Shown here piece by piece: positions 2,537-38,818 of a DNA stretch of 64,000 nucleotides (its first letter is position 1; each line of letters begins with the position of its first letter). The translations under genes were made by a program, and so were the position numbers. This DNA comes from a virus, in IMG/VR virus record IMGVR_UViG_3300010165_000001, positions 1 through 64,000 of that record. One strand, written 5' to 3'. The notes below the pieces were generated by a model. The model had not been told where the DNA came from. It ran no database searches and was given only the letters and a program-made list of their open reading frames with translations.

Positions 2537-2538
2537 TA

Positions 2539-2570: not shown

Positions 2571-2574
2571 ATAT

Positions 2575-2614
2575 TTGTTGACAACAAAAAACCTTTATGA
2601 TATACTAAGTATAT
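2575..2614 (+). promoter_or_regulatory. sigma-A promoter overlapped by two perfect palindromes
   Basis: TTGACA 2578-2583, 17 nt, TATACT 2601-2606; palindromes TTGTTGaCAACAA 2575-2587 and ATATACTaAGTATAT 2600-2614. Confidence 0.75.
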
Positions 2615-2635
2615 AAAATAAAAGGAGAGATTTAA

Positions 2636-2875
2636 ATGAATTATCATGTAGAAGATTTATACAAAGAGTTAAGTAGTAATTATAAAACAGCTAGAGAGAA
2701 TAAGATTGTAAAATCTAATCCACATTTACTTAAAGATGTAGAGGAAAATTTACATGAATTTGAGATATTGGTTAAAAATAGTATTAAGTTATCCACAATT
2801 CAAAAACAACAATTAATTTCAGACATGACAAAATCTAATGATTATTTAAAAAGTATAGTGACAAAATATAGGTAA
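2636..2875 (+). CDS. hypothetical small protein
   Basis: ORF; SD AAAGGAGAG. Confidence 0.7.
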   Translation: MNYHVEDLYKELSSNYKTARENKIVKSNPHLLKDVEENLHEFEILVKNSIKLSTIQKQQLISDMTKSNDYLKSIVTKYR

Positions 2876-2885
2876 GGATGATAAT

Positions 2886-3089
2886 ATGATAAAATGGTTA
2901 AAAGAGAATGTTTTTAATAACAAAAATAAAACATATCAAATTTGTTTTTTATATAGAAACACACAAAAACTCTATCTAAGAATAGAAGCTACAACACCTG
3001 CAAAAGCAGTTAAGGAAGCTAAAGAATATATAAACGAATTCTCTGCTAACAAAAATGATTATAAATTTCAAGGTGTAGAGGAAGTTTAG
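2886..3089 (+). CDS. hypothetical small protein
   Basis: ORF; SD AAGGA. Confidence 0.7.
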   Translation: MIKWLKENVFNNKNKTYQICFLYRNTQKLYLRIEATTPAKAVKEAKEYINEFSANKNDYKFQGVEEV

Positions 3090-3105
3090 AAAGGAAAAGG
3101 ATATT

Positions 3106-3312
3106 ATGGCTAGTAAAATAATGAAAAGAGTAAGGGAGAAGAAAGGTTATTCTGTTCGTTCTTTAGCAGATGAAATAGGTGTTAACTACTCTTCTATTTC
3201 TTTATGGGAGAATGGTAAACGTAAACCTAGAAATGCAAATGCAATTAAACTAGAAAAAATACTAGGTATGCCTTTACAAGAATTACTAAAGGAGGATACA
3301 AAAGATGACTAA
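3106..3312 (+). CDS. XRE-family helix-turn-helix protein
   Basis: YSVRSLADEIGVNYSSISLWENGKR is a classic Cro/C1-type HTH. Confidence 0.75.
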   Translation: MASKIMKRVREKKGYSVRSLADEIGVNYSSISLWENGKRKPRNANAIKLEKILGMPLQELLKEDTKDD

Positions 3313-3910
3313 CTCAGAAATATTAGAAGGATATTTAGATGAAGCTAGAGATAAAGTGGATACTTATGAACTTATGGAACTTAATGAAGTTGAAAGAGTT
3401 TTAGGTACAGAAAACTTTATGAAGCTTTATGAAACAATTGAAGACCATTTAACAATTGAAGAAAGACTACATGTTTATGGTTCATTGGATAAATTATTAA
3501 ATGCTAATAAAAGTGATTTTGTAAAATATGAAGAGGGTACAGTATATCGTAAACATTCACCTATAGAAGAGAAGGCAGAGTTCTATTCCTCAATATTGAG
3601 TGATAGTATTGGACAAGCAATTGAAGATATTCGATATAATCTTAAAAACACAGGAGAGACTGTAGTTATGAGTTCTATTATTGAATATATAGTCTTAGGT
3701 AGTGACTTAAGCGAAGAAGATTCTTTATACAGTACTGAAGTTATTAAGTATTTAAGAAAAAATAAAAATAACTTAAGTAAGATGTTAGATAACTTAAAAG
3801 TTATTGATGATAATGTTGAGAATGGTTATTACTTAGACATTAACTTCAACAAAGAGGAAGAGCCTAATGATAAAGAAATGTTAGAGATTTTAAAACTTAT
3901 CAATTTCTAG
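3305..3910 (+). CDS. hypothetical protein
   Basis: ORF; SD AAGGAGGA; overlaps previous stop. Confidence 0.7.
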   Translation: MTNSEILEGYLDEARDKVDTYELMELNEVERVLGTENFMKLYETIEDHLTIEERLHVYGSLDKLLNANKSDFVKYEEGTVYRKHSPIEEKAEFYSSILSDSIGQAIEDIRYNLKNTGETVVMSSIIEYIVLGSDLSEEDSLYSTEVIKYLRKNKNNLSKMLDNLKVIDDNVENGYYLDINFNKEEEPNDKEMLEILKLINF

Positions 3911-3922
3911 GAGGATTACCAT

Positions 3923-4117
3923 ATGTTAAAATGTTTGTATAGAGTAATTGTTGATGGTCGAGAAATGTTTGCGGTTGCTAAGAATGAAGATGAAGTTAAG
4001 AAACATTGTTTTGCTTTCTTTGATTATAATGATATAAAAGTGTATTTTTTAAATTACCAAGATAACGATAGTGAATTTCCTTATATTATTAATAGAGAGG
4101 ACTTCTTATATGCTTAA
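3923..4117 (+). CDS. hypothetical small protein
   Basis: ORF; SD TAGGAGGA. Confidence 0.65.
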   Translation: MLKCLYRVIVDGREMFAVAKNEDEVKKHCFAFFDYNDIKVYFLNYQDNDSEFPYIINREDFLYA

Positions 4118-4529
4118 ACTATATACAGATGGTGCAAGCTCATACAAGAGAGGTCTCTATGGCTCTGGATATGTAATTGTAGAAAACGACTCAGAAATCT
4201 ACAGTGCAAGTATTAAAGGAAAATACCCACAATTTGTTAAGTATAATAATGTTGCAGGTGAAATATTTGCTTGTCTTTATGGTGTTGAGAAGTGTATAGA
4301 ACTAGGTTATAAGTCTGTAGAAGTTTATGTAGATTATATTGGTTTGATTAAATGGCGTAGTGGTGCTTGGAGAGCTAAGAATGAATTAAGTCAAGCTTAT
4401 ATAAGTACAATGAGGCATCTAGAACAATATATTGATATAAACTTTAAAAAGGTGAAAGCACACTCAAAAGAATTAGGGGATAAATGGAATGAAAGGGCAG
4501 ATGACCTAGCAACAAGTTCAATCAACTAG
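4110..4529 (+). CDS. RNase H (RNase HI-like)
   Basis: YTDGAS..AGE..VDY..NERADDLA (DEDD pattern); internal ATG 4110 with AGAGAGGA SD preferred over track start 4071. Confidence 0.75.
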   Translation: MLKLYTDGASSYKRGLYGSGYVIVENDSEIYSASIKGKYPQFVKYNNVAGEIFACLYGVEKCIELGYKSVEVYVDYIGLIKWRSGAWRAKNELSQAYISTMRHLEQYIDINFKKVKAHSKELGDKWNERADDLATSSIN

Positions 4530-4539
4530 GAGTGGTAAT

Positions 4540-4686
4540 TTGGAATACGAGAACTTAGATATAGCTTTAGATTATATTAAAGGTAAAATACATGACCTAC
4601 AAATAGATAGTGAAGATGAGAAGAATAATGAACTTATTGATTCTTTAGAAGACTTATTATCATTTGTAGAACAAAATAGACAGTAA
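4540..4686 (+). CDS. hypothetical small acidic protein (48 aa, not in track)
   Basis: TTG start after AGGAGTGG; fills gap between RNase H and PhoH. Confidence 0.45.
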   Translation: MEYENLDIALDYIKGKIHDLQIDSEDEKNNELIDSLEDLLSFVEQNRQ

Positions 4687-4702
4687 GGGGATACTTGTAA
4701 AT

Positions 4703-5464
4703 ATGGCATACTTTGGAATTAGTGCAAAAAATGAAGAACAAAAATTAGCTTTGAGAGCTTTAGATAATGATAAACCTATAACAATTTTGACAGGTACTTC
4801 AGGAGTAGGTAAATCTTTATTAGCTCAAGCAGTTGGACTTGAAAAAGTTATAGAAACTAAAGAGTTTAAAAGGTTAATATATACTAGATTGCAAGTGGAT
4901 GTCGGGGCTGACAGAGGATTCCTACCAGGGAGTGATGGAGAGAAGTTATACCCTTATATCGCCCCCTTCTTAGATAATTTAGATGTTATGTCTTCTGAAA
5001 ATAGTAATATAAAAGATTATTTATTGTTTGAAGGTCAAGACGATAGTAAGAAAAAAGTTTTCTTTGATAGTATACAATCTATTCGAGGAAGGTCTTTAGA
5101 TGGATGGATTATTATAGATGAAGTTCAAAACTTAGATATACACACGATTACCGCTATAGCTACTAGGTTAAAAGCGGAAAATGCTAAGTTAATTCTGATG
5201 GGTAACTTTAGTCAAATTGATGATAAGAAATTAAGAAACCCTGAACAAAATGGTTTTTATCAATTACTAAAAGGTTTATATGAAAAAGACCCAGAACAAG
5301 AATTCTTTGACCATATTAATATGGTTCAAACACATAGACACCCTGTTGTAGATTTGATAGAAGATATTTTAAGGACAGATAAAAACGTAGACCCTGTATT
5401 CTATGAACTAGAGAACAGAGGAACATTAAAAGAATATAATAATAAATATGGTATAAAAGGTTAA
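4703..5464 (+). CDS. phoH: PhoH-like ATPase
   Basis: Walker A GTSGVGKS, Walker B IIDEVQNL, typical PhoH length. Confidence 0.85.
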   Translation: MAYFGISAKNEEQKLALRALDNDKPITILTGTSGVGKSLLAQAVGLEKVIETKEFKRLIYTRLQVDVGADRGFLPGSDGEKLYPYIAPFLDNLDVMSSENSNIKDYLLFEGQDDSKKKVFFDSIQSIRGRSLDGWIIIDEVQNLDIHTITAIATRLKAENAKLILMGNFSQIDDKKLRNPEQNGFYQLLKGLYEKDPEQEFFDHINMVQTHRHPVVDLIEDILRTDKNVDPVFYELENRGTLKEYNNKYGIKG

Positions 5465-5468
5465 GATA

Positions 5469-5732
5469 ATGATGGAATACAATAAAGAAACCGTACAAAA
5501 TAAAAATGAAATAGTATTTTATGATGAAATAGAAGAGAAGTATGTTAAGGAAGTTAATCATAATAGCGTACCTATCTCTTTTACAAAAATATTAGAAGAA
5601 GCTTTAGCGATACCTAATACAATTAAGTTTAAGAATTCTAGGAAGTATGAATCATTATTAGAGAACGATAATGTTACACCTATTAATAAAATAGAAACTA
5701 CAACATATACTACGAGATTAGAAGGCTTTTAA
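5469..5732 (+). CDS. hypothetical protein
   Basis: ORF; stop inside terminator stem. Confidence 0.6.
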   Translation: MMEYNKETVQNKNEIVFYDEIEEKYVKEVNHNSVPISFTKILEEALAIPNTIKFKNSRKYESLLENDNVTPINKIETTTYTTRLEGF

Positions 5733-5749
5733 TAGCCTTCTTTTTTTTT
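5721..5749 (+). terminator. rho-independent terminator
   Basis: GAAGGCT/AGCCTTC stem then T9. Confidence 0.75.
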
Positions 5750-5760
5750 ATATTTTATAC

Positions 5761-5789
5761 TTGTATTTTTAATAATTAGATGTTATAAT
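5761..5789 (+). promoter_or_regulatory. sigma-A-like promoter
   Basis: TTGTAT-17-TATAAT. Confidence 0.6.
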
Positions 5790-5821
5790 ATAGTTAAGTT
5801 AAAAGAAAGGATTGGTAAAAC

Positions 5822-5947
5822 ATGGAAGCAAAAGTAATTATAGAAGTAGAAGAAGCGAAAGAAATATTAGAAAAATTAGATAAAGGAACACCATTATATA
5901 ATAAGATTTTAAACCAAGTCGTAAATGCGAAAGGAGTAGGGAAATGA
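5822..5947 (+). CDS. hypothetical small protein (41 aa, not in track)
   Basis: ATG after GAAAGGA; ATGA overlap with next gene. Confidence 0.5.
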   Translation: MEAKVIIEVEEAKEILEKLDKGTPLYNKILNQVVNAKGVGK

Positions 5948-6378
5948 TTGTAATTAATAAAATAGTAGATGATATGGAAGAACTTTCCAGTAAAGCAGAT
6001 AATAAATATGTTTCTAATACATATAATAATGTAAGTAAATTAACAGATGAATATGAAGAAATTATGTTAGATAACTTAACACAAGCTACATTAAATATGT
6101 TAGAAACTCAAAATATATGTAAAGATGTACGTATGGATTCAGAGTTTGCAAATCAAATAAGAACACAAATTAGAATGAGAATTGAATGTCCAGAGTTAAA
6201 TTCAGAAGATTTTCATAACTTATGGTTAGAAGATATGAAAGAAAAGGGATATACTAGAGGTGATGTATTTTCTCAAAGAAATTTAACACACCCTAATGTT
6301 GTAGAATATAAATGTTTAAATAAAAATATCCACATTAAAGATAAAATTATAGATAACTTAGTAGATGCTTTTATTTAA
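5944..6378 (+). CDS. hypothetical protein
   Basis: ORF; SD AAAGGAG. Confidence 0.7.
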   Translation: MIVINKIVDDMEELSSKADNKYVSNTYNNVSKLTDEYEEIMLDNLTQATLNMLETQNICKDVRMDSEFANQIRTQIRMRIECPELNSEDFHNLWLEDMKEKGYTRGDVFSQRNLTHPNVVEYKCLNKNIHIKDKIIDNLVDAFI

Positions 6379-6395
6379 TACATGTTAAAACATAA

Positions 6396-6420
6396 TAAGG
6401 GTCTAATAAACCCTTATTTT
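6396..6420 (+). terminator. rho-independent terminator
   Basis: TAAGGG/CCCTTA stem then TTTT. Confidence 0.6.
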
Positions 6421-6451
6421 TAACTTAATATAAAAAAATAGTATAATTTAG

Positions 6452-6480
6452 TTGACAGTACATTTTAAACATGATATTAT
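6452..6480 (+). promoter_or_regulatory. sigma-A promoter
   Basis: TTGACA-17-TATTAT. Confidence 0.75.
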
Positions 6481-6509
6481 TAATATATAAGGTATAAGGA
6501 GGAAATCAA

Positions 6510-6935
6510 ATGGTTAAAATAAAAACTAAGAAAACTATGAACTTACCACAGTTGATTGAATGGGCGTGGGAAAATGATGTAACAAATACATGGCATAGAG
6601 CTAGTAATGTTGAAGAGTATATCTCGGAAGTATTTTTCGATGCAACGGGATTACCTCGGTTTTCAAACACATTCAATAAAAATGATACTTTCACAGTCGA
6701 AGTCGAAGAAGAAATTACGGAAGATACAGAAATACCTAGATTATTAACTACATTCAAAAAGATATATTTAAAAGATAACTTTGGTTATCAACGAGTGAGA
6801 ATTGATGATAACTATCCAATTAAACTCATGTTGGATAAAGCAGAAGCCCATAGTGAACCATTAGAAACACTACACCTTGTTAATAACGATGGCACACACA
6901 CTTTAATCTGGCGTGACGGGAGATTGATTGAATGA
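6510..6935 (+). CDS. hypothetical protein, paralog of 51123..51554
   Basis: Shares NLPQLIEW and NKNDTFTVEVEEEITEDT with the minus-arm copy. Confidence 0.7.
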   Translation: MVKIKTKKTMNLPQLIEWAWENDVTNTWHRASNVEEYISEVFFDATGLPRFSNTFNKNDTFTVEVEEEITEDTEIPRLLTTFKKIYLKDNFGYQRVRIDDNYPIKLMLDKAEAHSEPLETLHLVNNDGTHTLIWRDGRLIE

Positions 6936-7009
6936 AAGAATTTACGGTTTGGTTATCAGTGGTAATCATATTGGCAATCATACTATGGATAATGTGGATA
7001 ACTATATAA
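6932..7009 (+). CDS. tiny single-TM peptide (25 aa, not in track)
   Basis: MKEFTVWLSVVIILAIILWIMWITI; ATGA overlap with upstream stop. Confidence 0.4.
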   Translation: MKEFTVWLSVVIILAIILWIMWITI

Positions 7010-7022
7010 AGGAGTGATTAGG

Positions 7023-7640
7023 GTGAAAAAGGTAATGAATATCGAAGATAAGTCATTTAGTCAAAAGGAATTTTTCGAGAAGCATAAAGCAGGTAAAGAA
7101 CATTTACCATTAAGAGAAAAAAGGTGTAGTGAATGCCCTTCTACTGATATGTATTACGAAATTTCAAAAGGGTTATCGGAACAAGAAACTGAATTACAAG
7201 TAGATTGTGCTAGCAGTTGGTTTTGTCACTGTACACCTAACAAATCATGCAGAGGTGTAGCTGATTATTTAAGCACTAAAGGTAATATCGACATAGAAAA
7301 TAACAAAATAGTACCTAAGGAGAGATTAGGAATGGAAGAGTTAGTAAAATCAGTAGAACAATGGAGTAAAGATAAAGGACTAGATACAGGAAATCGTTTT
7401 GTACAATATGCTAAGGCATCTGAAGAATTTGGTGAGGTTGGTGCTGCACTGTGTCGTGACAACCATGAAGATTTAAAAGATGGAATTGGAGATGTAGTTG
7501 TAACAATGATTATTTTAGCACAACAAAATGGTATGAATTTAGAAGAATGTTTAGAGCAAGCGTATGGAGAAATAAAAGATAGAAAAGGTAAGATGTCTAA
7601 AGATGGCTCATTTATTAAAGAAAGTGATATTAATGAGTAA
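7023..7640 (+). CDS. mazG: MazG-like nucleotide pyrophosphohydrolase with Cys-rich N-terminal domain
   Basis: C-half EEFGEVGAAL..DGIGDVVVTMIILA..AYGEIKDRKG; N-half has 7 Cys; GTG 7023 after AAGGAG; internal AAGGAGAG + ATG 7332. Confidence 0.75.
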   Translation: MKKVMNIEDKSFSQKEFFEKHKAGKEHLPLREKRCSECPSTDMYYEISKGLSEQETELQVDCASSWFCHCTPNKSCRGVADYLSTKGNIDIENNKIVPKERLGMEELVKSVEQWSKDKGLDTGNRFVQYAKASEEFGEVGAALCRDNHEDLKDGIGDVVVTMIILAQQNGMNLEECLEQAYGEIKDRKGKMSKDGSFIKESDINE

Positions 7641-8304
7641 AGCCATAGATATGACAGGATACAAGTTTAATGGTTGTGAAGTAATAGAAAAAGAGAGTTA
7701 TAAAATACATGATAGAGTTGCATGGCTATGCGTGTGTTATTGTGGAGAATATTTTTCTGCAACAGGGAAACATATTAGGAACGAAAGTGTAAAATCTTGT
7801 GGATGACTTAGAAAGGAAATATTGGGCAGTCAAGGTGAAAAAAATAAAAAGCATGGTGAAACAAATAGTAAACTTTATAGTGTTTGGCGAGGGATTAAGA
7901 AGAGATGTAGAGTTTCAAATACTCCAAACTACGAGAATTACGGTGGCAGAGGTATAGATGTTTGTGATGAGTGGTATTATGATTTTGAAAGTTTTAGAGA
8001 TTGGGCTATAAAAAATGGATATGAGGAAGGTCTATCAATAGATAGAGTAGATGTTAACGGGAATTATGAACCTTCTAACTGTCGATGGTCTACAATGAAA
8101 GAACAACAAAATAATAGAAGAAATACAAAGTATGGAATGTATAAAGGAGAGATGATGACATTTTCGGAAATTGCCGAAATAACAGGGTTGTCTCTTCAGT
8201 CAATTCACTATCGTCATAAAAACAATATCGATTTTGAAAAACCAAAAAAACAATTAAAAAAATCTAAAGAAATACCAGAAAATAAATCTGAAGACTTAAA
8301 GTAA
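7633..8304 (+). pseudogene. HNH/homing-endonuclease-like gene interrupted by one in-frame TGA (7804-7806)
   Basis: Track ORFs 7603..7806 and 7822..8304 share a frame; ..VKSCG-TGA-LRKE..HGETNSKLYSVWRGIKKRC..YGGRGI.VCDEW. Confidence 0.6.
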
Positions 8305-8314
8305 AGGTGAGAAT

Positions 8315-8476
8315 ATGAAGAAAATAATAATTATACTATCAATTACAATACCACTTATTATATTAACGAAATATCTTATTCAAGAATTAAACTACTACTT
8401 AACAGCAAATGACGATATAGATTTACCAGGTTTCAACGAAATAGACCACAAACATTTAAATGGGGTTTTTAAATGA
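8315..8476 (+). CDS. small membrane protein (53 aa, not in track)
   Basis: MKKIIIILSITIPLIIL..; SD AAAGGTGAG; ATGA overlap with next gene. Confidence 0.5.
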   Translation: MKKIIIILSITIPLIILTKYLIQELNYYLTANDDIDLPGFNEIDHKHLNGVFK

Positions 8477-8667
8477 AAGATGAAATGAATGAACGGACTG
8501 TAAGAGTAGATTACACAGTGTCTTTAACTAAACATATTACTTGGAATGTAGACTTTAGTAAAGACCAAAACATTGAGGAAGAAATAGAAAAAGATATGAA
8601 TAAAAACCCAAATGATTATTTAGATGGAAATATTAAAAATATTAATGTAAACGACATAAACTATTAA
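8473..8667 (+). CDS. hypothetical small acidic protein
   Basis: ORF coupled to previous. Confidence 0.6.
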   Translation: MKDEMNERTVRVDYTVSLTKHITWNVDFSKDQNIEEEIEKDMNKNPNDYLDGNIKNINVNDINY

Positions 8668-24413: not shown

Positions 24414-24806
24414 ATATTTCAAGAAAAATGTAATTCTAAAAATTTTACCACCAAAATTTTACCAGAAAAATATAAGCCCCAAGAGAGTGTGGGGTAGGTC
24501 TCACACAACCCACATGTTATGGCATATTATAACGGGGGTACTAAATTGTACACAACTCAATAAAAGATAATTAAAATAGAGATAAAATAATTACCTTTTT
24601 TTTATATTAATTATTTTATTCTTTAAGAAATTATTTTATTATTTTAAATTAATTTTTTTATATATTTTAATTATTCATCACAGACCGATTCAACCTCTAT
24701 TCTAAGGACAATAAATCTTTTAGGTACTATTTATCCTAAATAGATATGAAGTACAATGAGAGGGCTCTGTGTGGCTCTCATAATGAATAGAGAAGCGGAC
24801 AAAAAA

Positions 24807-24828
24807 AAGACTATCAATTGATAGTCTT
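24807..24828 (-). terminator. terminator (perfect 22-nt palindrome)
   Basis: AAGACTATCAATTGATAGTCTT followed by T8 in minus sense. Confidence 0.75.
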
Positions 24829-24903
24829 AAGGAATTTAACTAATTTTTCCAAGTCTTTAGTATTCTTCTTTAGTTTGTTTATCTCTTTATCTAATTTGTC
24901 CAT
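24814..24903 (-). CDS. 29-aa Lys-rich helical peptide (not in track)
   Basis: MDKLDKEINKLKKNTKDLEKLVKFLKTIN; SD GAGGAGG; stop inside terminator. Confidence 0.45.
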   Translation of the reverse strand: MDKLDKEINKLKKNTKDLEKLVKFLKTIN

Positions 24904-24946
24904 TGTATAGCCTCCTCAATGCTTACTATGTGCCTCTGTATATCTA

Positions 24947-25426
24947 TTATAGGTCTCTCTCTTCTATTATGATTTGAGCTACCAGTTCAACTGCTAAGCA
25001 TACAAAATTAATTTTATCTTGGTCTGTAGGTAATACCTCTACATCGTTCATACAGTCAAATATAAGCTCCTCTTGTTCCTCCTCGTCCATATCGTACCAA
25101 TCTTCATGAGTCTCTGCGAGTTGTGTTGCTTCGTCTTGCATGAGGTCTAGCATATCTTCATACTCCGTAAAGCTTGTGTTAATCTCACTATTTAATAACT
25201 CCATAAGCTCAACATTTATAATATCGTAAAAAGTATCATGTGTTAAGTCCTCCACGTATTCAAGTATAACCGCTTCAATATCGTCCTCATATCTGTTAAA
25301 GAAATCTACCACGTCTGAAGTATAAATAAGTTCCCCGATTGCTCCGCTTTGTACTCCGTAAGTTGCTACGTCTTCGATTGTGCTTTGTTCTTGTCCCTGT
25401 AAAAATTCTTTTATTGTGTTTGTCAT
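24947..25426 (-). CDS. highly acidic protein (candidate DNA mimic / anti-restriction)
   Basis: 159 aa, very rich in D/E; last gene of the early array; conserved GGGAATTGAT leader. Confidence 0.7.
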   Translation of the reverse strand: MTNTIKEFLQGQEQSTIEDVATYGVQSGAIGELIYTSDVVDFFNRYEDDIEAVILEYVEDLTHDTFYDIINVELMELLNSEINTSFTEYEDMLDLMQDEATQLAETHEDWYDMDEEEQEELIFDCMNDVEVLPTDQDKINFVCLAVELVAQIIIEERDL

Positions 25427-25431
25427 AATAA

Positions 25432-25509
25432 ATCAATTCCCTTCTTATTTGTTACACTAAGTATATCATGGTTACAAGTTACTGTCAATAGTTTTTTTAA
25501 ACTTTTTTA
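25432..25509. repeat. 78-bp promoter+leader cassette, copy 1
   Basis: Apparently identical to 25748-25825; holds UP tract, TTGACA (rc 25483-88), TATACT, leader to SD. Confidence 0.9.
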
Positions 25510-25743
25510 AACTAATTTCCAGTTGATATCTGAAATGTATTCCTCTAGGTCTTCCAAAGTTTCTGCAAATTTGATTGATTGTAGAGTATCAGAAGTTACC
25601 ACAACCGCTTCTGTGTCATGAATTTCATTGTCTAAGATATTATTGTCTATGTGGTCGATATACTCCCAAATTAGGGCGTGCTTTACGCTCTCAAGTGTTG
25701 CTATACTAATTACGATTTGGTTTTCTTGGTTTAATAATTTCAT
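25507..25743 (-). CDS. acidic small protein
   Basis: ATG 25743, 10 nt after GGGA; track TTG start 25752 rejected. Confidence 0.65.
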   Translation of the reverse strand: MKLLNQENQIVISIATLESVKHALIWEYIDHIDNNILDNEIHDTEAVVVTSDTLQSIKFAETLEDLEEYISDINWKLV

Positions 25744-25747
25744 TTGT

Positions 25748-25825
25748 ATCAATTCCCTTCTTATTTGTTACACTAAGTATATCATGGTTACAAGTTACTG
25801 TCAATAGTTTTTTTAAACTTTTTTA
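25748..25825. repeat. 78-bp promoter+leader cassette, copy 2
   Basis: See 25432-25509. Confidence 0.9.
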
Positions 25826-26033
25826 TTTCTTTTTTCTAGGTGTTTTGCTTCCTTAACTTGTTAATACAAGTATATCATGAAGCGGTTATTGTGTCAACAA
25901 TTTTTTAAAAGTTTTTTAACTTCTTTTTTTAAGTGTTCCGCTTCCTTACTACACTCTATATATTACAGTATAATGATATAAAAGTCAATAGATTTTTGAA
26001 ACTTTTTTAAATAAATTATTTTGAAGAAAGGTA

Positions 26034-26062
26034 TTGACAAACCGTAGGAATTATTATATAAT
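26034..26062 (+). promoter_or_regulatory. consensus sigma-A promoter on the plus strand with no ORF downstream
   Basis: TTGACA-17-TATAAT. Confidence 0.7.
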
Positions 26063-26213
26063 GGAAGTGGACGGTTATTTTTTTATAAAAAAGGACGGAC
26101 TCCCCCCGAAACCCCTTCTTTGGTCTTGGGCTCCTTAACCTTATATCTATATTATACTATGTATTGTAAGAATTGTCAACACTTTTTATAAACTTTTTTA
26201 ATTAATTTAAGTA

Positions 26214-26242
26214 TTGACAACCAGTAGCAAAATTGATATAAT
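26214..26242 (+). promoter_or_regulatory. consensus extended -10 promoter on the plus strand with no ORF downstream
   Basis: TTGACA-17-(TGa)TATAAT. Confidence 0.7.
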
Positions 26243-26248
26243 TAAGAT

Positions 26249-26398
26249 GATACCATAAAATACCTATAATTTTTTTATATAATATTATTTTTATACTAAA
26301 ATTATCGTTCACTTCATTATCTCAAAAATATTCACATTTGTCAAGCCCTAATTTAAAATAAAATAACCGCTTCAAGAATTTAATCCGAAGCGGTTTAT
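26249..26398 (+). ncRNA. candidate ~150-nt sRNA (promoter 26214 to hairpin 26365-26395)
   Basis: No ORF above 3 codons; contains the complement of the early-leader motif (26264-26283); inference only. Confidence 0.25.
26365..26395 (-). terminator. terminator hairpin using the GAAGCGGTT stem
   Basis: AACCGCTTC/GAAGCGGTT; minus sense followed by ATTTTATTTT. Confidence 0.7.
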
Positions 26399-26407
26399 AT
26401 AAATTTT

Positions 26408-26788
26408 TTATTTCATGATATTTAGTAATGTTGTATGTAATTCTTCAATATCTGATTGGTCTACAATGTACAATACACCGTTAATCTTGATGCTTATAGC
26501 TTCTTGTCCGTAAACTTCAATTAAACGTCTTACAATTCCTTTTAATTCAACTGTCATGAATTTTGCATTGTCTTGCATGTAGTACCATTCAAGATTTAAG
26601 TTGTTATCTTCCATGATACGTTTTTCATCTTCTGAATACCATTGACCTTTGATTTCTGTTATTGTACATCCGCCCGCTTCTATTGTGATACTATTTACAT
26701 ACTCTTGAATACGTTTGTCCGCAATTTCCACGCCGTTGTTATCCTCTTTAGGTATAATAATCTCAATTTTATTTTGTAGTTTAAACAT
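26408..26788 (-). CDS. hypothetical protein
   Basis: ATG 26788, 10 nt after AAGGA; earlier TTG/ATG are too close to the SD. Confidence 0.7.
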   Translation of the reverse strand: MFKLQNKIEIIIPKEDNNGVEIADKRIQEYVNSITIEAGGCTITEIKGQWYSEDEKRIMEDNNLNLEWYYMQDNAKFMTVELKGIVRRLIEVYGQEAISIKINGVLYIVDQSDIEELHTTLLNIMK

Positions 26789-26884
26789 TTTCATCAATTC
26801 CTTTTCTCTTTGATTTGTTAATACAAGTATATCATCTATATGCTAGATTGTCAACAGTTTTTTTAAACTTTTTTTTACTAGGTT

Positions 26885-26950
26885 GGAAGCGGTTTGACCG
26901 CTTCCCTTACCTTACAATTTAATAATAACATGCTAGGTCTTGAAAGTCAA
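26885..26950 (-). promoter_or_regulatory. orphan promoter + stem-loop unit
   Basis: TTGACT (rc 26945-50)-17-TATTAT, then GGAAGCGGT-ttg-ACCGCTTCC 26885-26905; no ORF before the next promoter. Confidence 0.55.
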
Positions 26951-26959
26951 GCCTTTTTA

Positions 26960-27211
26960 TTAAAAGTTTTCAATTTCTTTTTTAGTCATTTTATCATGAC
27001 CATGTTGCATAATAAATTCGTTCACATGTCTTGCAGTAGTTTGTGAGTAGTAACCAATTTCTACAATGTTATTGTTTTCATCTAATTCACAAACATCTGT
27101 GTTATAGCTTGTTAAAATCTTGTGACCGTTGTCCAATACGTCTACGACTGCTTTTCCGTAAAAACTTTTTTGTGTACTGTAAATGCTTTCTAATTTGTAT
27201 GTGTTATTCAT
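26960..27211 (-). CDS. hypothetical small protein
   Basis: ORF; AAGGAATTGAT leader. Confidence 0.7.
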   Translation of the reverse strand: MNNTYKLESIYSTQKSFYGKAVVDVLDNGHKILTSYNTDVCELDENNNIVEIGYYSQTTARHVNEFIMQHGHDKMTKKEIENF

Positions 27212-27310
27212 AATTAATCAATTCCTTTTCTGTTTTATTTGTTATCTTAATAATATCATGGTTTCAAGTTACTGTCAATAGTTTTTTTTAAACTTTTTTT
27301 ATTTAGGTTA

Positions 27311-27375
27311 GAAGCGGTTTGACCGCTTCCCTTACCTTACAATTTAATAATATCATGTAGTGCTTAAGTTGTCAA
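27311..27375 (-). promoter_or_regulatory. orphan promoter + stem-loop unit (second copy)
   Basis: TTGACA (rc 27370-75)-17-TATTAT, then GAAGCGGT-ttg-ACCGCTTC 27311-27329; ~70 bp similar to 26885-26950. Confidence 0.55.
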
Positions 27376-27378
27376 CAC

Positions 27379-27510
27379 TTATTTTGAATATTTTACAATT
27401 TTATTTGCTTTTAGAAATGTAACATCTTGACGGTAGTTTTTTAATTCTTCTGCAAATCTTTCATTATTTTTCATTCCGATTAAGTTTAAAGTTGTTGTAA
27501 TTTTTTTCAT
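27379..27510 (-). CDS. 43-aa basic peptide (not in track)
   Basis: MKKITTTLNLIGMKNNERFAEELKNYRQDVTFLKANKIVKYSK; AAGGAATTGAT leader and own promoter (rc -35 27572-77). Confidence 0.45.
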   Translation of the reverse strand: MKKITTTLNLIGMKNNERFAEELKNYRQDVTFLKANKIVKYSK

Positions 27511-27580
27511 TTTTCATCAATTCCTTTTCTGTTTGATTTGTTACCTTAATATTAACACGTTGTTTCTAGGTTGTCAATAG

Positions 27581-27727
27581 TTATCTAATAAAAATATTTA
27601 TATTATCTTGAATTCTGATAAGATAATCAATTGTAACAACAATTCCAGTAGTACCGAATAAAGTAACTAGCTTGTCTGTCAGTGGTGTAGATTTATATTT
27701 TTTATTATTGAATTTAAATTTTATCAT
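27581..27727 (-). CDS. 48-aa peptide (not in track)
   Basis: SD AGGAGGT 8 nt upstream; own promoter (rc -35 27784-89). Confidence 0.55.
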   Translation of the reverse strand: MIKFKFNNKKYKSTPLTDKLVTLFGTTGIVVTIDYLIRIQDNINIFIR

Positions 27728-27792
27728 TTTGTGTTACCTCCTAATTAATTTGTATCTAAATTATAACATACAGTAAATAAAACTGTCAAACA

Positions 27793-27867
27793 TTAATTTT
27801 TATTTTTTTCTTCCATGTAACCATAAATAAAAGCACTCATCATCACAAAACCAAATATAAATATCAT
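27793..27867 (-). CDS. 24-aa hydrophobic peptide (not in track)
   Basis: MIFIFGFVMMSAFIYGYMEEKNKN; SD AAGGAG; own promoter (rc -35 27920-25). Confidence 0.3.
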   Translation of the reverse strand: MIFIFGFVMMSAFIYGYMEEKNKN

Positions 27868-28114
27868 TTCTTTCAACTCCTTATCTTGTATCTAAACTAT
27901 AACATATAATACTAAATAAAGTCAAACATTAATTTTAAGCCCTAGAGAGCAAAGAGAAGTCCATTCTGTATACATTCAATAATAATTAGGATAAATACAT
28001 CATATAATAGAAGAAACTAAATAAACACACTCCAAAGTACCCTGTATAAGATAATACAATGAAGCGGTTAAAATAGAGCATAAAAAAATAATTTAAAAAA
28101 GTTTTAAAAACCTA

Positions 28115-28143
28115 TTGCAATTTATATCAAACTGTAGTATCAT
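28115..28143 (+). promoter_or_regulatory. plus-strand promoter with UP tract, no ORF downstream
   Basis: TTGCAA-17-TATCAT preceded by AAAAAAGTTTTAAAAACCTA. Confidence 0.6.
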
Positions 28144-28149
28144 TATAAG

Positions 28150-28225
28150 TGAAGTAAGAAAGAGGAGACCAGCCTGATAACCTCTATAAACCTCGGATAG
28201 GTTGGGGAGAAGGCACCCCCTAAAC
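28150..28225 (+). ncRNA. candidate structured sRNA (three adjacent GC-rich hairpins)
   Basis: AGAGG/CCTCT 28161-85, AACCT/AGGTT 28189-203, GGGG/CCCC 28204-19 in AT-rich DNA; strand uncertain because an antisense promoter sits at 28356. Confidence 0.25.
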
Positions 28226-28386
28226 TCATTTAAGTAGTAGACAACTCTATAAATTATTTATATAATTCCCCTAGAATACAATTGAACACAATATAAAAAC
28301 TTTTTTATATATAAAAAAGTCATCTCACTTTAATTATACACCTATTTTAACCACTTGTCAATACCCAATTTTACACTATTTTGTTA

Positions 28387-28415
28387 TTGACATTCATGCC
28401 GAATTTTGATATAAT
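28387..28415 (+). promoter_or_regulatory. consensus extended -10 promoter on the plus strand, no ORF downstream
   Basis: TTGACA-17-(TGa)TATAAT. Confidence 0.7.
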
Positions 28416-28954
28416 GGAATTGATGACCTAAAATACCTATAATTTTTTTATATAATACTATTTGAATAGAAGCGGATGCAATATATTAATTACTGAATAA
28501 GGTTGCCCGATTCATATCTGTAGCAAATCCTTTAGTCAATTAATACGTTACCATATTAAAGTAAACTATATAATTTTTTTTATATAATAACAAATGAATA
28601 GAAGAGGTCATAAACTAATAACTATTGAATAATGTTATATACAACTATATAATTTTTTTATATAATAACAAATGAATACAACCGCTTCAAATACTATAAG
28701 AATATTATACAATTGATTACAAGCCATTAGCCAACGAATACAATTCATTAACTATTCATTAGTACACAATATAATATCATTAGCATTGATTAGCCCACAA
28801 TTAGATAGTAAAATTATAGAATAAAATAAGTATTGAAGCGGACACAATACAATAACTATTGAATAATGTTTACTACAATAAGTTAAAAAGTTTAATAGGT
28901 GGGTAGGCAATATAAATATAATGTTATCTTATGGGGTGGTTAAAGAATTCCCAG

Positions 28955-29194
28955 GTTCTAATATATTTTAGTTATTCTATATTTTAGTTATTCTATAAAT
29001 TATTTATTCTATAATAAAGTTATCCTATAATAAAATTATACAATATAAAGGTTAAATAGTTCCTGTAGTATCTTATAATAAAGTTATTCTATAAATAAGT
29101 TAATCAATAAATAAATTAATCAATAAATAAATTAATCAATATTAAGGTTATTCAATTTTTCTTTTATTCTATACAGTAATTAATATATAATTTT
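28955..29194. repeat. degenerate 16-bp tandem array, ~15 units (consensus GTTATTCTATAAATAA)
   Basis: Units in register every 16 bp from 28955 or 28971 to 29178 or 29194, including three near-perfect TTAATCAATAAATAAA units at 29100-29147. Confidence 0.85.
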
Positions 29195-29221
29195 TTTATA
29201 TAAATTTAAACAAATAAAAAA

Positions 29222-29243
29222 CCCTAGGAATCTAATCCCAGGG
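29222..29243 (-). terminator. rho-independent terminator
   Basis: CCCTGGGA/TCCTAGGG stem (one G-U) then T6 in minus sense. Confidence 0.7.
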
Positions 29244-29267
29244 AATTCTATAATTTTTTTATATTAT

Positions 29268-29504
29268 TTAAATATATTGTTTTAATTCTTGCATATTATG
29301 AGAAACTTTTTTACTAACATAATAATTAGATAATTTTTTTATAATTTCCCACTGTTCGTTTATTTCATCTACAATAATAAATTCGTTATTATTTAATTCA
29401 TATACTATAGGTTCATCATAAACATATAATAAATTTTCCAATTCATTTTCATTTGGTTCAGTTGTAATCAATTCATTTTCTAATACATAATAATTTTTTG
29501 TCAT
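29268..29504 (-). CDS. hypothetical small acidic protein
   Basis: ORF; AAAGGATTGAT leader preceded by motif copy. Confidence 0.7.
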   Translation of the reverse strand: MTKNYYVLENELITTEPNENELENLLYVYDEPIVYELNNNEFIIVDEINEQWEIIKKLSNYYVSKKVSHNMQELKQYI

Positions 29505-29533
29505 TTTAAATCAATCCTTTTTTTATAATTTTT

Positions 29534-29800
29534 TTATATTTCTAACATTGCATTTAAATCTTCTAACACTTCAATAATATAATTATGAAATAATATAGGT
29601 GTAACATTAGAATTTTTATATAACTTTTCTTCATCTGTTATAATTGCATTATTTAATGCTATGCTATCTTGAATTTGAAAATAATTATTTAATTCTTTTA
29701 ATTCATTTAAAGTTACATCATAATTGAGTGCAATTCTATTTATTTCTTCATCAGTTCCAAAAAGTACAATTTTAATAATTTCATTTAATTTTTTATTCAT
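29534..29800 (-). CDS. hypothetical small protein
   Basis: Internal ATG 29800 after GGGA SD; track start 29932 would overlap the upstream gene and its hairpin. Confidence 0.6.
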   Translation of the reverse strand: MNKKLNEIIKIVLFGTDEEINRIALNYDVTLNELKELNNYFQIQDSIALNNAIITDEEKLYKNSNVTPILFHNYIIEVLEDLNAMLEI

Positions 29801-29849
29801 AATATCATATCCCTTTTTTATAAATTTTTTATTTAATTCAGAAGCGGTT

Positions 29850-30128
29850 TTAATTCTTAACCGCTTCATTATGTCTTGCTTCTGCTTCTGCATGAGTATC
29901 AGGGAAATCGAACGTGCGGACTGTTTTGCCAAATTCTGATGTTACAGTCGTTTTAGTGTGGTAGTAACCAAAGATAGTATATTTTTTATTTGTACGTCTC
30001 TCACCTTTCCAACGTTCATCAATAAAGCTAGTTTTGAATTGGTCATGTGTTAAGTACATTTCTATTGTTTCACCGTCTAAATTTGTGTAAGTCATTTTAA
30101 TTGCTTTCATTTGGTTTAAGTTTGTCAT
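29850..30128 (-). CDS. hypothetical small protein
   Basis: ATG 30128 after AGGATTTGAT; stop lies in GAAGCGGTT hairpin. Confidence 0.65.
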   Translation of the reverse strand: MTNLNQMKAIKMTYTNLDGETIEMYLTHDQFKTSFIDERWKGERRTNKKYTIFGYYHTKTTVTSEFGKTVRTFDFPDTHAEAEARHNEAVKN

Positions 30129-30309
30129 AATAATCAAATCCTATTCTATAATTTTTTTATATAATTCTAATATTCGTTATTTGCTAGGTGGTTTGTCTTA
30201 TTTGTTATCTTAATAATAACATGTATCTTGTAAGCTGTCAATACTTTTCTTTAACTTTTTTAAAAAGTTTTTTTAAGATGTGCTTGATTACCTTACAAAT
30301 ACAATTTTA

Positions 30310-30408
30310 CTACAGTTTGTTTAGTGAGTCAATAGCTTTTTTAAATTCTTTTTGCAATTTCTCAATTTCTTTTTTATCTTGCTTGAGTTTCTTAAGTAGT
30401 AAACTCAT
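30310..30408 (-). CDS. 32-aa Lys-rich helical peptide (not in track)
   Basis: MSLLLKKLKQDKKEIEKLQKEFKKAIDSLNKL; GGGGG SD; own promoter (rc -35 30515-20). Confidence 0.4.
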   Translation of the reverse strand: MSLLLKKLKQDKKEIEKLQKEFKKAIDSLNKL

Positions 30409-30576
30409 AATATATTGCCCCCAATTCTATAATTTTTTTTTATTTAATTTCCTTATTTGCTTAAGTTCCTTTTTGATTACCTTACAAATACTATTATATC
30501 AAGTTATAAGATAATTGCAATAGTTTTTTTAAATTTGGTAGTGCTTTAACGTGGTAAAAGGTTAAAGCACTTTTTT

Positions 30577-30744
30577 TTATTTTGCTACAATCCCATCAAC
30601 TAAAGTTAAACCATTTATTTTTTCAATTATTTTAGTTACGGTAATATTATATTGTGTATCATTTAATTCACTTTCTATATAATCCCCTACAACTAAATTA
30701 TTTTTTTGTACTTTTACGTTTTTTATAATTTGAACAGTTTTCAT
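30577..30744 (-). CDS. 55-aa protein (not in track)
   Basis: SD TAGGAGAA; followed by an 11-bp-stem hairpin. Confidence 0.55.
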   Translation of the reverse strand: MKTVQIIKNVKVQKNNLVVGDYIESELNDTQYNITVTKIIEKINGLTLVDGIVAK

Positions 30745-30786
30745 ATTTTATTTTCTCCTATTCTATAATTTTTTTATTTAAATATA

Positions 30787-31089
30787 TTAATCAAGAATTT
30801 CAATTTGATTAATTATTTTTTGATTTCTAATGATATATAACATTCTATTAATATATAAAAATGTTAAACCGTATTTATGAAACATCGTTCCATATTCTTG
30901 TGGTAACTGTTTTTTAAAAAACTTTTGTTTCTGATAAAACTCAACGTAACCCTGTTTGGTTTGTATAAGTAACTGCAAATATTCGCCTTGTGGTTTACCA
31001 TATACGATATAATTTTCATTACGTCTGTCTATAGCACCATATAAACCAAATACCCCTATTATATTTTGTATATCTTTATTCTTTTTCAA
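30787..31089 (-). CDS. hypothetical protein
   Basis: TTG start after GGAAGGTGA; ~230-nt leader from promoter with rc -35 at 31331-36. Confidence 0.6.
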   Translation of the reverse strand: MKKNKDIQNIIGVFGLYGAIDRRNENYIVYGKPQGEYLQLLIQTKQGYVEFYQKQKFFKKQLPQEYGTMFHKYGLTFLYINRMLYIIRNQKIINQIEILD

Positions 31090-31405
31090 TTAAATCACCT
31101 TCCGTATTTTTTAATAAGTTATCTATTTGTTATCTGTCTAATACTATACATGATATTAATATAAAAAACAACCCCCCAAATTAAAGAAATTTTTTTAGGT
31201 CTTAATTTTTGTTTTATATGGAAGAAACTGGAAATTAAGCAAAAAATAAATAGTATAATTTTTTTATATAATTCTGTATATAAGACAGACAGACCCCTCT
31301 AATTATTATGATAAAGGATAATACCCGATTTGTCAATACACAATTTTACACTTTTTTTAAATTGTCATAAAGTGTAAAATTTCTCATTTAATTTATTTAA
31401 AAGTA

Positions 31406-31433
31406 TTGAAATTATATATCAATCTGCTATAAT
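31406..31433 (+). promoter_or_regulatory. plus-strand promoter for 31492..31773
   Basis: TTGAAA-16-TATAAT, then the shared initial transcribed sequence AGTATTTGTAAGGTAATCAA. Confidence 0.6.
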
Positions 31434-31491
31434 AGTATTTGTAAGGTAATCAAACAACCTTAACAAATTAAATGAAAAGGATTGATATATA

Positions 31492-31773
31492 ATGAAAATT
31501 TACAATGAGGACAACACACAATTAATCGAAGTAATAGACGGATTAGACAACGGTCTAGCAATTAGCCAAACATTTAGAAATAGCACATATGAATTCTATA
31601 AAGAAAATAATAATATTCTTGTAAGATTAGACAGTGAAACAATTGGGCATATTGAGAGAATTCCATATGGCACATATGAACAGTTAAGATTTGAAGATTG
31701 GGACACTGAAAAAATTCTAATAATTGAATGGTTGGATGAGTTAGATGCTTATATTTTTGAATATGAAGTTTAA
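31492..31773 (+). CDS. hypothetical small protein (only plus-strand gene in the early region)
   Basis: ORF; AAAGGATTGAT leader as in the minus-strand genes. Confidence 0.65.
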   Translation: MKIYNEDNTQLIEVIDGLDNGLAISQTFRNSTYEFYKENNNILVRLDSETIGHIERIPYGTYEQLRFEDWDTEKILIIEWLDELDAYIFEYEV

Positions 31774-31794
31774 TATATAAAAAAATTATAGAAT

Positions 31795-38717: not shown

Positions 38718-38741
38718 ATAAGTACTCCTTTTTATTATTAG

Positions 38742-38818
38742 TGCCCTGTATAGGATTTGAACCTATACAATCACATGGTTTAGGAGACCATGGCTCTATC
38801 CTATTGAGCTAACAGGGC
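38742..38818 (-). tRNA. tRNA-Arg(CCU), 77 nt, no encoded CCA, 8-nt variable region
   Basis: Hand-folded cloverleaf: acceptor GCCCTGT/ACAGGGC, D GCTC/GAGC with GG, anticodon stem ATGGT/ACCAT, loop CTCCTAA, T arm ATAGG-TTCAAAT-CCTAT. Confidence 0.75.

Follow-up and report, generated by a model that had tools for sequence, protein, structure and literature searches.

Cis-antisense RNAs transcribed from facing promoters are known from several phages and plasmids, among them OOP of phage lambda, sar of P22, Anti-Q/prgX of pCF10 and RNA I of ColE1. T4-type phages carry PeSL elements, which are mobile promoter/stem-loop cassettes, and the terminal repeat of phage T5 includes a repeat-rich, non-coding region with a proposed injection-stop function. 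In the staphylococcal phage K, an RNA termed snc002 has been placed at 5022-5067 on the minus strand (Finstrlova et al. 2022, PMC9241854, Table 1). Here we describe a gene-free block at positions 27868-29267 of a 64,000-nucleotide stretch of viral DNA (positions 1 to 64,000 of IMG/VR virus record IMGVR_UViG_3300010165_000001; hereafter the window, ~27% GC), which lies inside a long terminal repeat (LTR) and carries a structured RNA element at 28153-28234 on the plus strand. By comparative sequence analysis, the 28115-28361 core of this block is a small-RNA gene with a fold under selection. As the best explanation of the block as a whole we tentatively propose, with a confidence that stops somewhat short of even, a structured small-RNA gene that is cis-antisense to an immediate-early leader, the rest of the block being lineage-specific repeats.

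Twenty-five homologous copies aligned to one architecture on the window plus strand, in which promoter hexamers are followed by a purine-rich 5' segment, a 5-bp helix, a variable GC hairpin, a near-invariant tail and a copy of an A/T-rich leader motif. In the ~82-nt window element, which was delimited by a covariance model and covariation, helix 1 pairs AGAGG at 28161-28165 with CCTCT at 28181-28185, and a long-range helix of 7 bp pairs CCAGCCT at 28169-28175 with AGGTTGG at 28199-28205, with a G.U pair at 28172/28202. The two helices cross, giving an H-type pseudoknot topology; in long-form members the 5' strand of the long-range helix lies in the loop enclosed by helix 1 and pairs with sequence further downstream. 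The variable GC hairpin (~28204-28219) follows the long-range helix, and the near-invariant tail CTAAACTCATTTAA lies at 28220-28233 (alignment consensus CTAAA-N-TCATTTAA). Among the homologs the 5-bp helix occurs as AGAGG/CCTCT, AGCGG/CCGCT, AGTGG/CCACT or AGCGC/GCGCT, and the loop word GCCU is conserved. The GC-rich island retains 90-96% identity in Sciuriunavirus ZCSS1 and Sepunavirus phiIPLA-C1C, in which the block is otherwise nearly unrelated.

A plain MAFFT alignment of 15 K-type sequences served as an alignment independent of the structure model. RNAalifold found the 7-bp helix in it, with four covarying pairs and the G.U pair in 15/15 sequences. For both helices, 98.9% of cells in this alignment were paired, against 42-52% in slid registers; 6/12 pairs had double changes, and no one-sided changes were seen. 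The covariation score was 0.429 compared with 0.108 in shuffles, of which 0/500 reached the observed value. Structure counts across the family cover 29 distinct rows out of ~220 homologs and span three subtypes. In these rows 99.0% of cells were paired, 7/12 pairs were compensatory and the G.U pair was present in 27/27; the 7-bp helix paired in 98.4% of cells with 5/7 compensatory pairs, and helix 1 was paired in 100% of cells, its third pair occurring as three Watson-Crick types. This 29-row alignment was fitted to the model and is hence biased towards the structure, a bias from which the MAFFT-only K-type result is free. An all-subtype MAFFT alignment was dropped because the helix-1 3' arm was off by two columns between subtypes. 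Model R1, a covariance model built from the 15 K-type sequences only and including no window-type sequence, scored the window at 28153-28234 on the plus strand with 52.1 bits (E 1.3e-8, full length, model positions 1-83), and with filters off it detected no second copy in the window LTR. The sequence-only reading that drew attention to this block had named covariation in related phages as a check, and two helices do covary across the 29 distinct homologs. Judged on these comparisons, the element is a new, well-supported RNA family with a putative antisense mechanism.

The helices alone could form on either strand. The element is assigned to the window plus strand because the invariant G.U pair would become an A.C mismatch on the minus strand. 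The transcript from 28115 had been described as folding into three adjacent hairpins (28161-85, 28189-203 and 28204-19), and these are exactly the minimum-free-energy stems. The single-sequence fold, however, is no better than that of shuffled sequences (plus strand z = +0.52, minus strand z = 0.01), so the hairpins alone are no evidence. The middle hairpin is not conserved, as it has an uncompensated mismatch in Golestan101-M and competes with the covarying long-range helix. At the gathering threshold, Rfam 15, its S. aureus sRNAs included, gave no match in the block or on the element; at E <= 10 the best match on the element was DUF805 RNA, whose 17.2 bits (E 5.2) fall short of the 51.1-bit threshold of that family. 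ARAGORN called no transfer RNA (tRNA) or transfer-messenger RNA on the element. The sole tRNA of the window is a tRNA-Arg (anticodon CCT) outside the block, at 38741-38818 on the minus strand. A search for trans targets showed no enrichment, elsewhere in the window, of the conserved tail or of 10-mers from the element. Two coding candidates on the element were rejected: a plus-strand small open reading frame (ORF), which has a Shine-Dalgarno-like AGAGGAG and no start codon, and a minus-strand ATG ORF, which is not conserved and has no Shine-Dalgarno sequence.

K-type copies of the element occur in 209 records (phage K and most Kayvirus genomes among them) and window-type copies in 12, and by these sequence matches the element is common to over 200 staphylococcal Twort-like phages, therapy phages included. 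Model R1 also picked up a third, short subtype in EW1 and as second copies in BS2, JDF86, PG1 and ZCSS1, in which the long-range helix is collapsed to a simple hairpin and the G.U pair is kept. Several phages hold two diverged copies in one LTR, each with its own promoter pair. Such copies lie at 1804-1852 and 3081-3137 in phiSA_BS2 (both short form), 251-333 and 1570-1628 in JDF86, 125-184 and 1567-1648 in PG-2021_1, and 952-1013 and 3002-3082 in ZCSS1. Most two-copy phages have one long and one short form, and O1-102 and B2-102 have one window-type and one K-type copy each. A 21-base pattern across the element was absent from 185,579 bacterial and archaeal genomes bar one chance match, and was found in three Twortvirinae-sized viral contigs. 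Another 120 IMG/VR matches, to a 14-mer of the element, fell in unrelated contigs and were set aside as chance. No examined record annotates the element as RNA, and a few place a "hypothetical protein" over it.

The RNA might instead act through its fold, as an immediate-early decoy or inhibitor that binds a protein of host or phage origin, for example a nuclease or a target in defence or takeover. Selection on the fold, with two covarying helices and the conserved GCCU, would suit such a role, as would a gene within the first DNA expressed, the restriction of the element to phages, the presence in some genomes of diverged long and short copies and the lack of a trans pairing target in the window. 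However, the element has no similarity to any Rfam family, and the conserved facing promoter is simpler to understand as an antisense relationship; we regard a decoy or inhibitor as quite unlikely. The more specific version, in which the pseudoknotted RNA would be made within minutes from the first-entering DNA and would bind a host factor as a decoy or inhibitor, we hold to be distinctly unlikely.

The promoters on either side of the element are conserved as well. The window small-RNA promoter, TTGCAA-17-TATCAT with an A/T-rich tract upstream (28115-28143, plus strand, 9/12 by consensus, predicted start ~28150), ends 9 nt upstream of the element. A same-strand promoter with 17-bp spacing is kept in 28/29 copies, its -10 hexamer ending 6-29 nt before the element, and its spacer diverges in sequence among copies while the 17-bp length stays fixed. 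On the minus strand, the facing early promoter TTGACA-17-TATAAT at 28333-28361 (12/12) lies 98 nt downstream of the window element; facing promoters of 11-12/12 are present in 28/29 copies, 49-165 nt beyond the element. The segment that holds it, 28291-28388, is conserved in many Twortvirinae, and the promoter itself is the orthologue of a phage K promoter at ~4963-4991 (K plus strand) that is unlisted in K. It is also the minus-strand consensus promoter that the sequence-only reading had firing back across 28115. The same reading had counted two strong plus-strand promoters. One, an orphan with an extended -10 (TTGACA-17-TGnTATAAT, 28387-28415), is 12/12 and has a listed orthologue in phage K; the promoter at 28115 scores only 9/12, but its position is conserved in 28/29 copies. 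Its account of the promoters as convergent is right for 28115 (plus) and 28361 (minus), whereas 28361 (minus) and 28387 (plus) stand back to back and are divergent. Perfect sigma-70 sites are enriched about 40-fold in the window (9 against 0.23 expected), with 6/9 at 24-33 kb and two in the block.

The facing promoter would fire towards the small-RNA gene from ~190 bp away. Overlapping convergent transcription units are predicted from sequence in the window and in 28/29 homologs, with a predicted overlap of ~175 nt for the window transcripts and about 125-185 nt across copies. In the window the overlap would cover the element, the leader motif and a perfect A/T palindrome, CTTTTTTATATATAAAAAAG, at 28299-28320. 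This palindrome lies in the first ~30 nt of the minus-strand transcript and was recovered by local BLAST as a 22-nt inverted self-match of 100% identity; like palindromes stand behind homologous promoters, both at 26062-26095 and in phage K. A start region composed of GAAGTG..., an A/T palindrome (TTTTTTA-N-TAAAAAA) and the leader motif is common to the strongest early promoters, and it is seen at 28299-28320, 26062-26095 and phage K ~5000-5030, in both orientations and across genera. From its sequence, this shared start region looks like a conserved promoter-proximal leader module.

We propose that the sigma-A-type promoter at 28115-28143 would produce a plus-strand RNA, of which the first ~80 nt would form the two covarying helices in pseudoknot topology and then the GC hairpin. 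The promoter at 28361 would drive a minus-strand immediate-early transcript towards the TreN-like genes. The plus-strand RNA would then be a cis-acting antisense RNA to the leader of the 28361 transcript, polymerase collision between the facing promoters could add to the antisense effect, and the net result would be to limit or time that transcript. This cis-antisense mechanism is preferred because of the facing-promoter geometry. From sequence we infer the in-vivo firing of both promoters in this phage, the RNA end and the antisense function.

The copy of the element in phage K lies at 5042-5123 on the K minus strand, which corresponds to the window plus strand, behind TTGACC-17-TATACT. The published snc002 has the same locus and strand, and both lie in the LTR between gp012 and gp013. 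It differs in extent, taking in just the 3'-terminal 26 nt of the element together with the adjacent motif, and in having come from a prediction program and a coverage threshold, with no promoter, structure, conservation or phage target reported. The overlap is a weak hint of RNA from the element strand, and the sole experimental one. The transcript from 28115 had been put forward as a candidate small RNA, and covariation, the strand-specific G.U pair, the conserved promoter and the same-strand overlap with snc002 all agree with that proposal.

Several points weigh against a cis-antisense RNA made from this element. Promoter activity and the RNA itself are, for this phage, predictions from sequence, and the window small-RNA promoter is a weak match to the consensus (9/12). 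A clear intrinsic terminator is missing behind the window element, whose tail carries U3 compared with U5-U8 in the Sepunavirus and ZCSS1 copies. In the window-type element, the 3' strand of the long-range helix also fits hairpin 28189-203 and overlaps hairpin 28204-19 by two G, and the single sequence of the element does not fold more stably than shuffles. The TreN-like genes have proximal promoters of their own (27789, 27925), so that the relevance of the 28361 transcript to them is presumptive, and phage K has an HNH gene that separates TreN from the element. The snc002 prediction is backed by a coverage threshold of at least 5-fold (PMC9241854), and neither of the promoters flanking the K element appears in the published tables of either K transcriptome study. 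Finally, covariation supports the importance of the RNA fold, not antisense pairing as its mode of action.

If the facing transcript is taken as the functional one, the element would sit in its 5' leader and could serve as a minus-strand attenuator, with a short leader peptide whose stop overlaps helix 1. A leader-peptide ATG is present at 28229, ~21 nt after the leader motif, which is the spacing seen in real genes. It opens 28 codons in the window and 14 in K-type copies, which keep that 14-codon frame ending in TAG at the helix-1 arm, and on the minus strand helix 1 is followed by the conserved CTTTCTTAC. The invariant G.U pair becomes A.C on this strand, however. No Shine-Dalgarno sequence precedes the ATG, which is absent from Sepunavirus-type copies, ZCSS1 and some short-form copies; codons 2-6 undergo non-conservative changes that leave the hairpin potential intact, and a 5-bp stem with a 15-17-nt loop makes a poor terminator. 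An attenuator of this kind is hardly likely at all, and a plus-strand RNA that is cis-antisense to the 28361 leader is preferred to it.

The block as a whole matches only Staphylococcus Twortvirinae (Herelleviridae), and does so piecewise; its nearest relatives are the Baoshanvirus-like phages Golestan101-M, phiSA_BS2, JDF86 and PSU4, and conservation across it is patchy between relatives. It is placed in the LTR because relatives annotate an LTR or repeat region there (a 12,225-bp repeat_region in Stab22, the LTR at 1-8486 in phage K and the label "L-LTR" at the homologous place in the A5W, 676Z and MSA6 records) and because the flanking ORFs, TreN-like and others, are LTR-encoded. Within the LTR the block forms the central, non-coding control region, positioned between the early-operon terminator at 29222-29243 and the promoters of TreN-like small membrane-protein genes. 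The genes on both sides are LTR genes on the minus strand: a TreN-like membrane protein at 27581-27727 (phrog_3325, E 1.2e-18), an ORF with a PHROG match to phrog_3837 at 27379-27510 and another, to phrog_21531, at 29268-29504. At the block edge, a promoter-like site at 27896-27925 on the minus strand (TTGACT-18-TATAGT with TG, 10/12) lies upstream of a hydrophobic ORF of 24-27 codons at 27793-27876. This site and the promoter of the TreN-like gene, at 27789-27760, are tandem copies and belong to direct repeat D7 (27745-27800 and 27881-27936, 80% identical). A gene-free gap occurs at the same place in Golestan101-M (1.65 kb), phiSA_BS2 (2.3 kb), Stab22 (0.86 kb), phiIPLA-C1C (0.68 kb) and ZCSS1 (0.48 kb), and phage K has an HNH endonuclease gene there on the opposite strand. 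The records of PSU4 (OL436245.1), JDF86 (OQ129426.1), T2-102 (ON113344.1) and RSM-J51Sa (PV020493.1) start or end inside the LTR region or within <=1-2 kb of it, and the T2-102 record has the RNA element at positions 19-76. Record coordinates in this phage group are therefore not physical genome ends.

The claim that the block holds no plausible ORF was borne out. Micro-ORFs of 20-52 amino acids are all the ORFs in 27877-29267, and a PHROG scan of the block micro-ORFs gave no family match, while three flanking small ORFs matched clearly. The six frames of 28420-29182 contain 20-31 stops each and, read through the stops, gave no PHROG match at E <= 0.1. In tblastn searches of the block with the phage K and RODI HNH and neighbouring proteins, HNH reached only E > 0.1 and no remnants were detected. 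A decayed HNH endonuclease or Tre cassette in 28389-29179 was rejected, as no protein similarity was found in any frame.

Between the RNA gene and the early-operon terminator, the block is of another character. The 28387 promoter has no gene behind it and is the orthologue of the promoter of phage K gp013 (HNH), which it matches near base for base through ~+12 (window TTGACATTCATGCCGAATTTTGATATAATGGAA, K TTGACATTAAGACCGAATTATTATATAATGGAA). The K gp013 promoter is listed as active by both phage K transcriptome studies. In PSU5 and RODI the conserved segments 28291-28388 and 29177-29270 abut directly, and 28389-29179 (~790 bp) is therefore extra DNA. It is shared only with Golestan101-M, BS2, JDF86 and PSU4, among which its length varies. 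Within it, motif-led repeat units occupy 28437-28900 on the plus strand, with exact copies of the motif at 28438 and 28648, a copy one base longer (+1T) at ~28568 and a degenerate one at 28814; three 31-bp tandem repeats lie at 28707-28801 and solitary GAAGCGG words at 28469, 28682 (minus strand) and 28835. The sequence-only reading had recorded three ~70-bp units led by the motif. The units and the motif are real, but the unit family has four copies of 65 nt with 65-77% identity, unevenly spaced by 132, 78 and 156 bp. Unit number differs in Golestan101-M, the closest relative, and in BS2, and the downstream parts of the units resemble promoter-proximal sequence elsewhere in the LTR. Because they have the same orientation as nearly all LTR copies of the motif, the units look like expanded or duplicated intergenic modules. 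By sequence comparison, then, 28389-29179 is lineage-specific and consists of duplicated promoter, leader and terminator pieces behind an orphan promoter.

It would be a further step to regard the whole block as non-functional debris made of lost cassettes, slipped repeats and leftover chance promoters and hairpins. The ~790 bp of lineage-specific, repeat-rich DNA of variable length would fit, as would an orphan promoter that has lost the gene its K orthologue drives and the solitary half-copies of the GAAGCGG hairpin word scattered in the block. For the core, debris is contradicted by covariation, in which substitutions are compensatory and none is one-sided; genera with little else of the block in common have the core element at 90-96% identity, both flanking promoters are kept in 28/29 copies, and coding remnants were not detected. 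Debris throughout is thus unlikely, if the least so of the alternatives. The suggestion that the block may be a graveyard of decayed gene cassettes fails for decayed coding DNA, of which no protein remnants exist, and is reasonable for duplicated promoter, leader and terminator pieces. Comparison with relatives, another of the checks named at the outset, likewise gave a divided result, as the core is kept across genera and 28389-29179 is missing in PSU5 and RODI.

The motif that heads these units, TATAATTTTTTTATATAAT, has 22 matches with <=3 mismatches in the window against 1.69 expected, and the plus strand carries almost all of its copies within the LTR (~24.6-31.8 kb). In minus-strand sense it stands directly 5' of the Shine-Dalgarno sequence of the genes that start at 30137 (exact), 29504, ~29797 and 30744 (2-3 mismatches). 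Its copy behind the RNA element, TATAAATTATTTATATAAT (28248-28266, plus strand, two mismatches), would be an anti-leader on the plus-strand RNA and a leader motif on the facing transcript. A motif copy is found behind the element in most of the 25 aligned homologs and is diverged in the Sepunavirus-type copies (Quidividi, C1C, PG1, BE06) and ZCSS1. About 12 good copies of the 19-nt motif lie in 26265-31790. Four of these precede a Shine-Dalgarno sequence, the remaining copies stand behind gene-less promoters or on both sides of the terminator 29222-29243, and one, at 31772-31790, is on the opposite strand. From its placement, the motif could serve in ribosome standby, in processing or in protein binding. 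At ORF 29534-29932 (minus strand), the mechanical TTG start at 29932 is probably wrong: the motif copy at 29819-29837, the Shine-Dalgarno-like AAAAGGGA and an ATG at ~29797 point to a shorter product, and the hairpin at 29841-29867 would then lie at the end of the upstream gene 29850-30137.

The sequence-only reading had assigned ~20 nt of perfect complementarity to several early leaders. Complementarity is perfect for one or two leaders only and imperfect for the rest, because the other leader copies carry 2-3 mismatches. It had also proposed, in consequence, a trans-acting antisense or sponge RNA, in which plus-strand RNAs, chiefly the 28387 transcript, would pair with shared early leaders and shut off their translation. 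The motif is indeed over-represented and sits directly 5' of the Shine-Dalgarno sequence in four early genes, and the K orthologue of the 28387 promoter is active in vivo. Moreover, the three strong orphan plus-strand promoters of the LTR (26214, 28115 and 28387) each lead into an anti-leader motif copy, and anti-leader plus-strand RNAs may therefore be a recurring LTR theme. Against a sponge, the repeat stretch is missing in PSU5 and RODI and varies in copy number among close relatives, and the 28387 transcript has no structure signal (fold z = -1.38). The duplex formed would comprise 19 bp, all of them A-U, and just one gene leader has an exact motif copy. Most motif copies are not beside genes and nearly all have one orientation, as expected of duplicated modules, and the orthologous promoter of phage K drives a protein gene with no motif array. 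A dedicated trans-acting sponge in the 28387 repeats thus lacks support, though it is unrefuted, and we judge the sponge explanation improbable.

The remainder of the extra DNA contains an A/T-rich array at 28960-29190 with a 9-bp core, TTAWTMWAT, every 16 bp. Tandem Repeats Finder (TRF) reported a period of 16, and 10 cores were counted against 0.57 expected, at 13.6% GC. PSU4, BS2 and JDF86 have 7-9 copies and retain the phase in multiples of 16, and the array is absent from Kayvirus, Sepunavirus and ZCSS1. With 16 bp equal to 1.5 helical turns, it could be a protein-binding array or a minisatellite. One may also ask if the region serves DNA metabolism, either as an origin-like region that is primed by a transcript and whose array binds an initiator, or as a T5-like DNA-entry pause region. 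The phased array of 16 bp, kept in four phages at its low GC content, and the facing promoters around a structured RNA, which in general terms recall RNA II/RNA I of ColE1, would be in its favour. However, the array is absent from phage K, PSU5, RODI, C1C and ZCSS1, all of which keep the RNA element, and the array and the element are therefore not one functional unit; no DnaA-box-like consensus is apparent. We consider a role in DNA metabolism very unlikely, and retain the cis-antisense small RNA with adjoining lineage-specific repeats as the preferred explanation.

The block closes with the end of the upstream early operon (29186-29267, minus strand), in which motif copies at 29249-29267 and 29186-29204 surround an intrinsic terminator at 29243-29222 with its T-run. 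The stretch 28420-29270 matched 133 records, in most of which the segment 29177-29270 shows 87-94% identity; this segment aligns to phage K 4849-4941, the site of the annotated gp012 terminator. An IMG/VR scan with the conserved terminator pattern gave 0 matches.

The heptamer GAAGCGG occurs 20 times in the window against 0.5 expected, with 18/20 copies within 24792-29867, and is thus almost confined to the LTR. Some copies form inter-gene hairpins of the type GAAGCGGTT...AACCGCTTC (26367/26387, 26886/26898, 27311/27323 and 29841/29861). Others are solitary, one in a promoter spacer (25879) and four in the block, and the word is also found inside the gp001 promoter spacer of phage K. A second ORF-free stretch of the LTR, 25753-26407, has the same design as the block. 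Perfect facing promoters at 26034-26062 (plus) and 26179-26151 (minus) bracket a GC-rich island at ~26085-26145, which ends on the minus strand in a hairpin and T6 (26114-26097), and a perfect plus-strand promoter with TG at 26214-26242, followed by an exact motif copy (26265), faces a minus-strand promoter at 26344. This island was rejected as a second family member, since the model was negative with filters off and only AGCCCAAGA is shared with the short-form members.

Kayvirus and related Twortvirinae are the main Staphylococcus therapy phages, and expression after infection begins with their LTR, most of whose products lack a known function. The central gap of the LTR is not empty; it holds, on comparative evidence, an RNA gene with a fold under selection that stands outside the published promoter tables and offers a testable handle on the control of immediate-early expression. 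Separation of the core from the lineage-specific repeats helps annotation and engineering, and marks parts of the LTR that may be removable. If the RNA were such a decoy or inhibitor of a host factor, it would represent an RNA-level host-takeover or anti-defence function in essentially all staphylococcal Twort-like therapy phages.

Among the known systems, the T5 terminal repeat is alike in general terms, as a kilobase-scale, ORF-free, repeat-rich stretch in a terminal repeat that enters first and is expressed first. It differs in that the block lies in the middle of the LTR and not at its inner end, and the repeat part is not conserved across the subfamily; to our knowledge, two-step DNA entry is not known for Twortvirinae. 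PeSL elements are comparable, again in general terms, in that short regulatory modules of promoter, leader motif and hairpin recur between small early genes. Such modules could promote the shuffling, duplication and loss of cassettes, which would fit the repeat expansion in 28389-29179, although PeSL elements have other sequences and belong to another phage family. With OOP, sar, Anti-Q and RNA I the element has no sequence or structural homology, and a pseudoknot-type fold is, as far as we know, unusual among facing-promoter cis-antisense RNAs. The partner also differs, as it would be the LTR immediate-early transcript of a strictly lytic phage, under a regulation that is predicted here. In function and general layout these RNAs are nonetheless the nearest analogues: a promoter facing a stronger one gives, or for the element is predicted to give, a short structured RNA that overlaps the 5' leader of the longer transcript by 100-200 nt.

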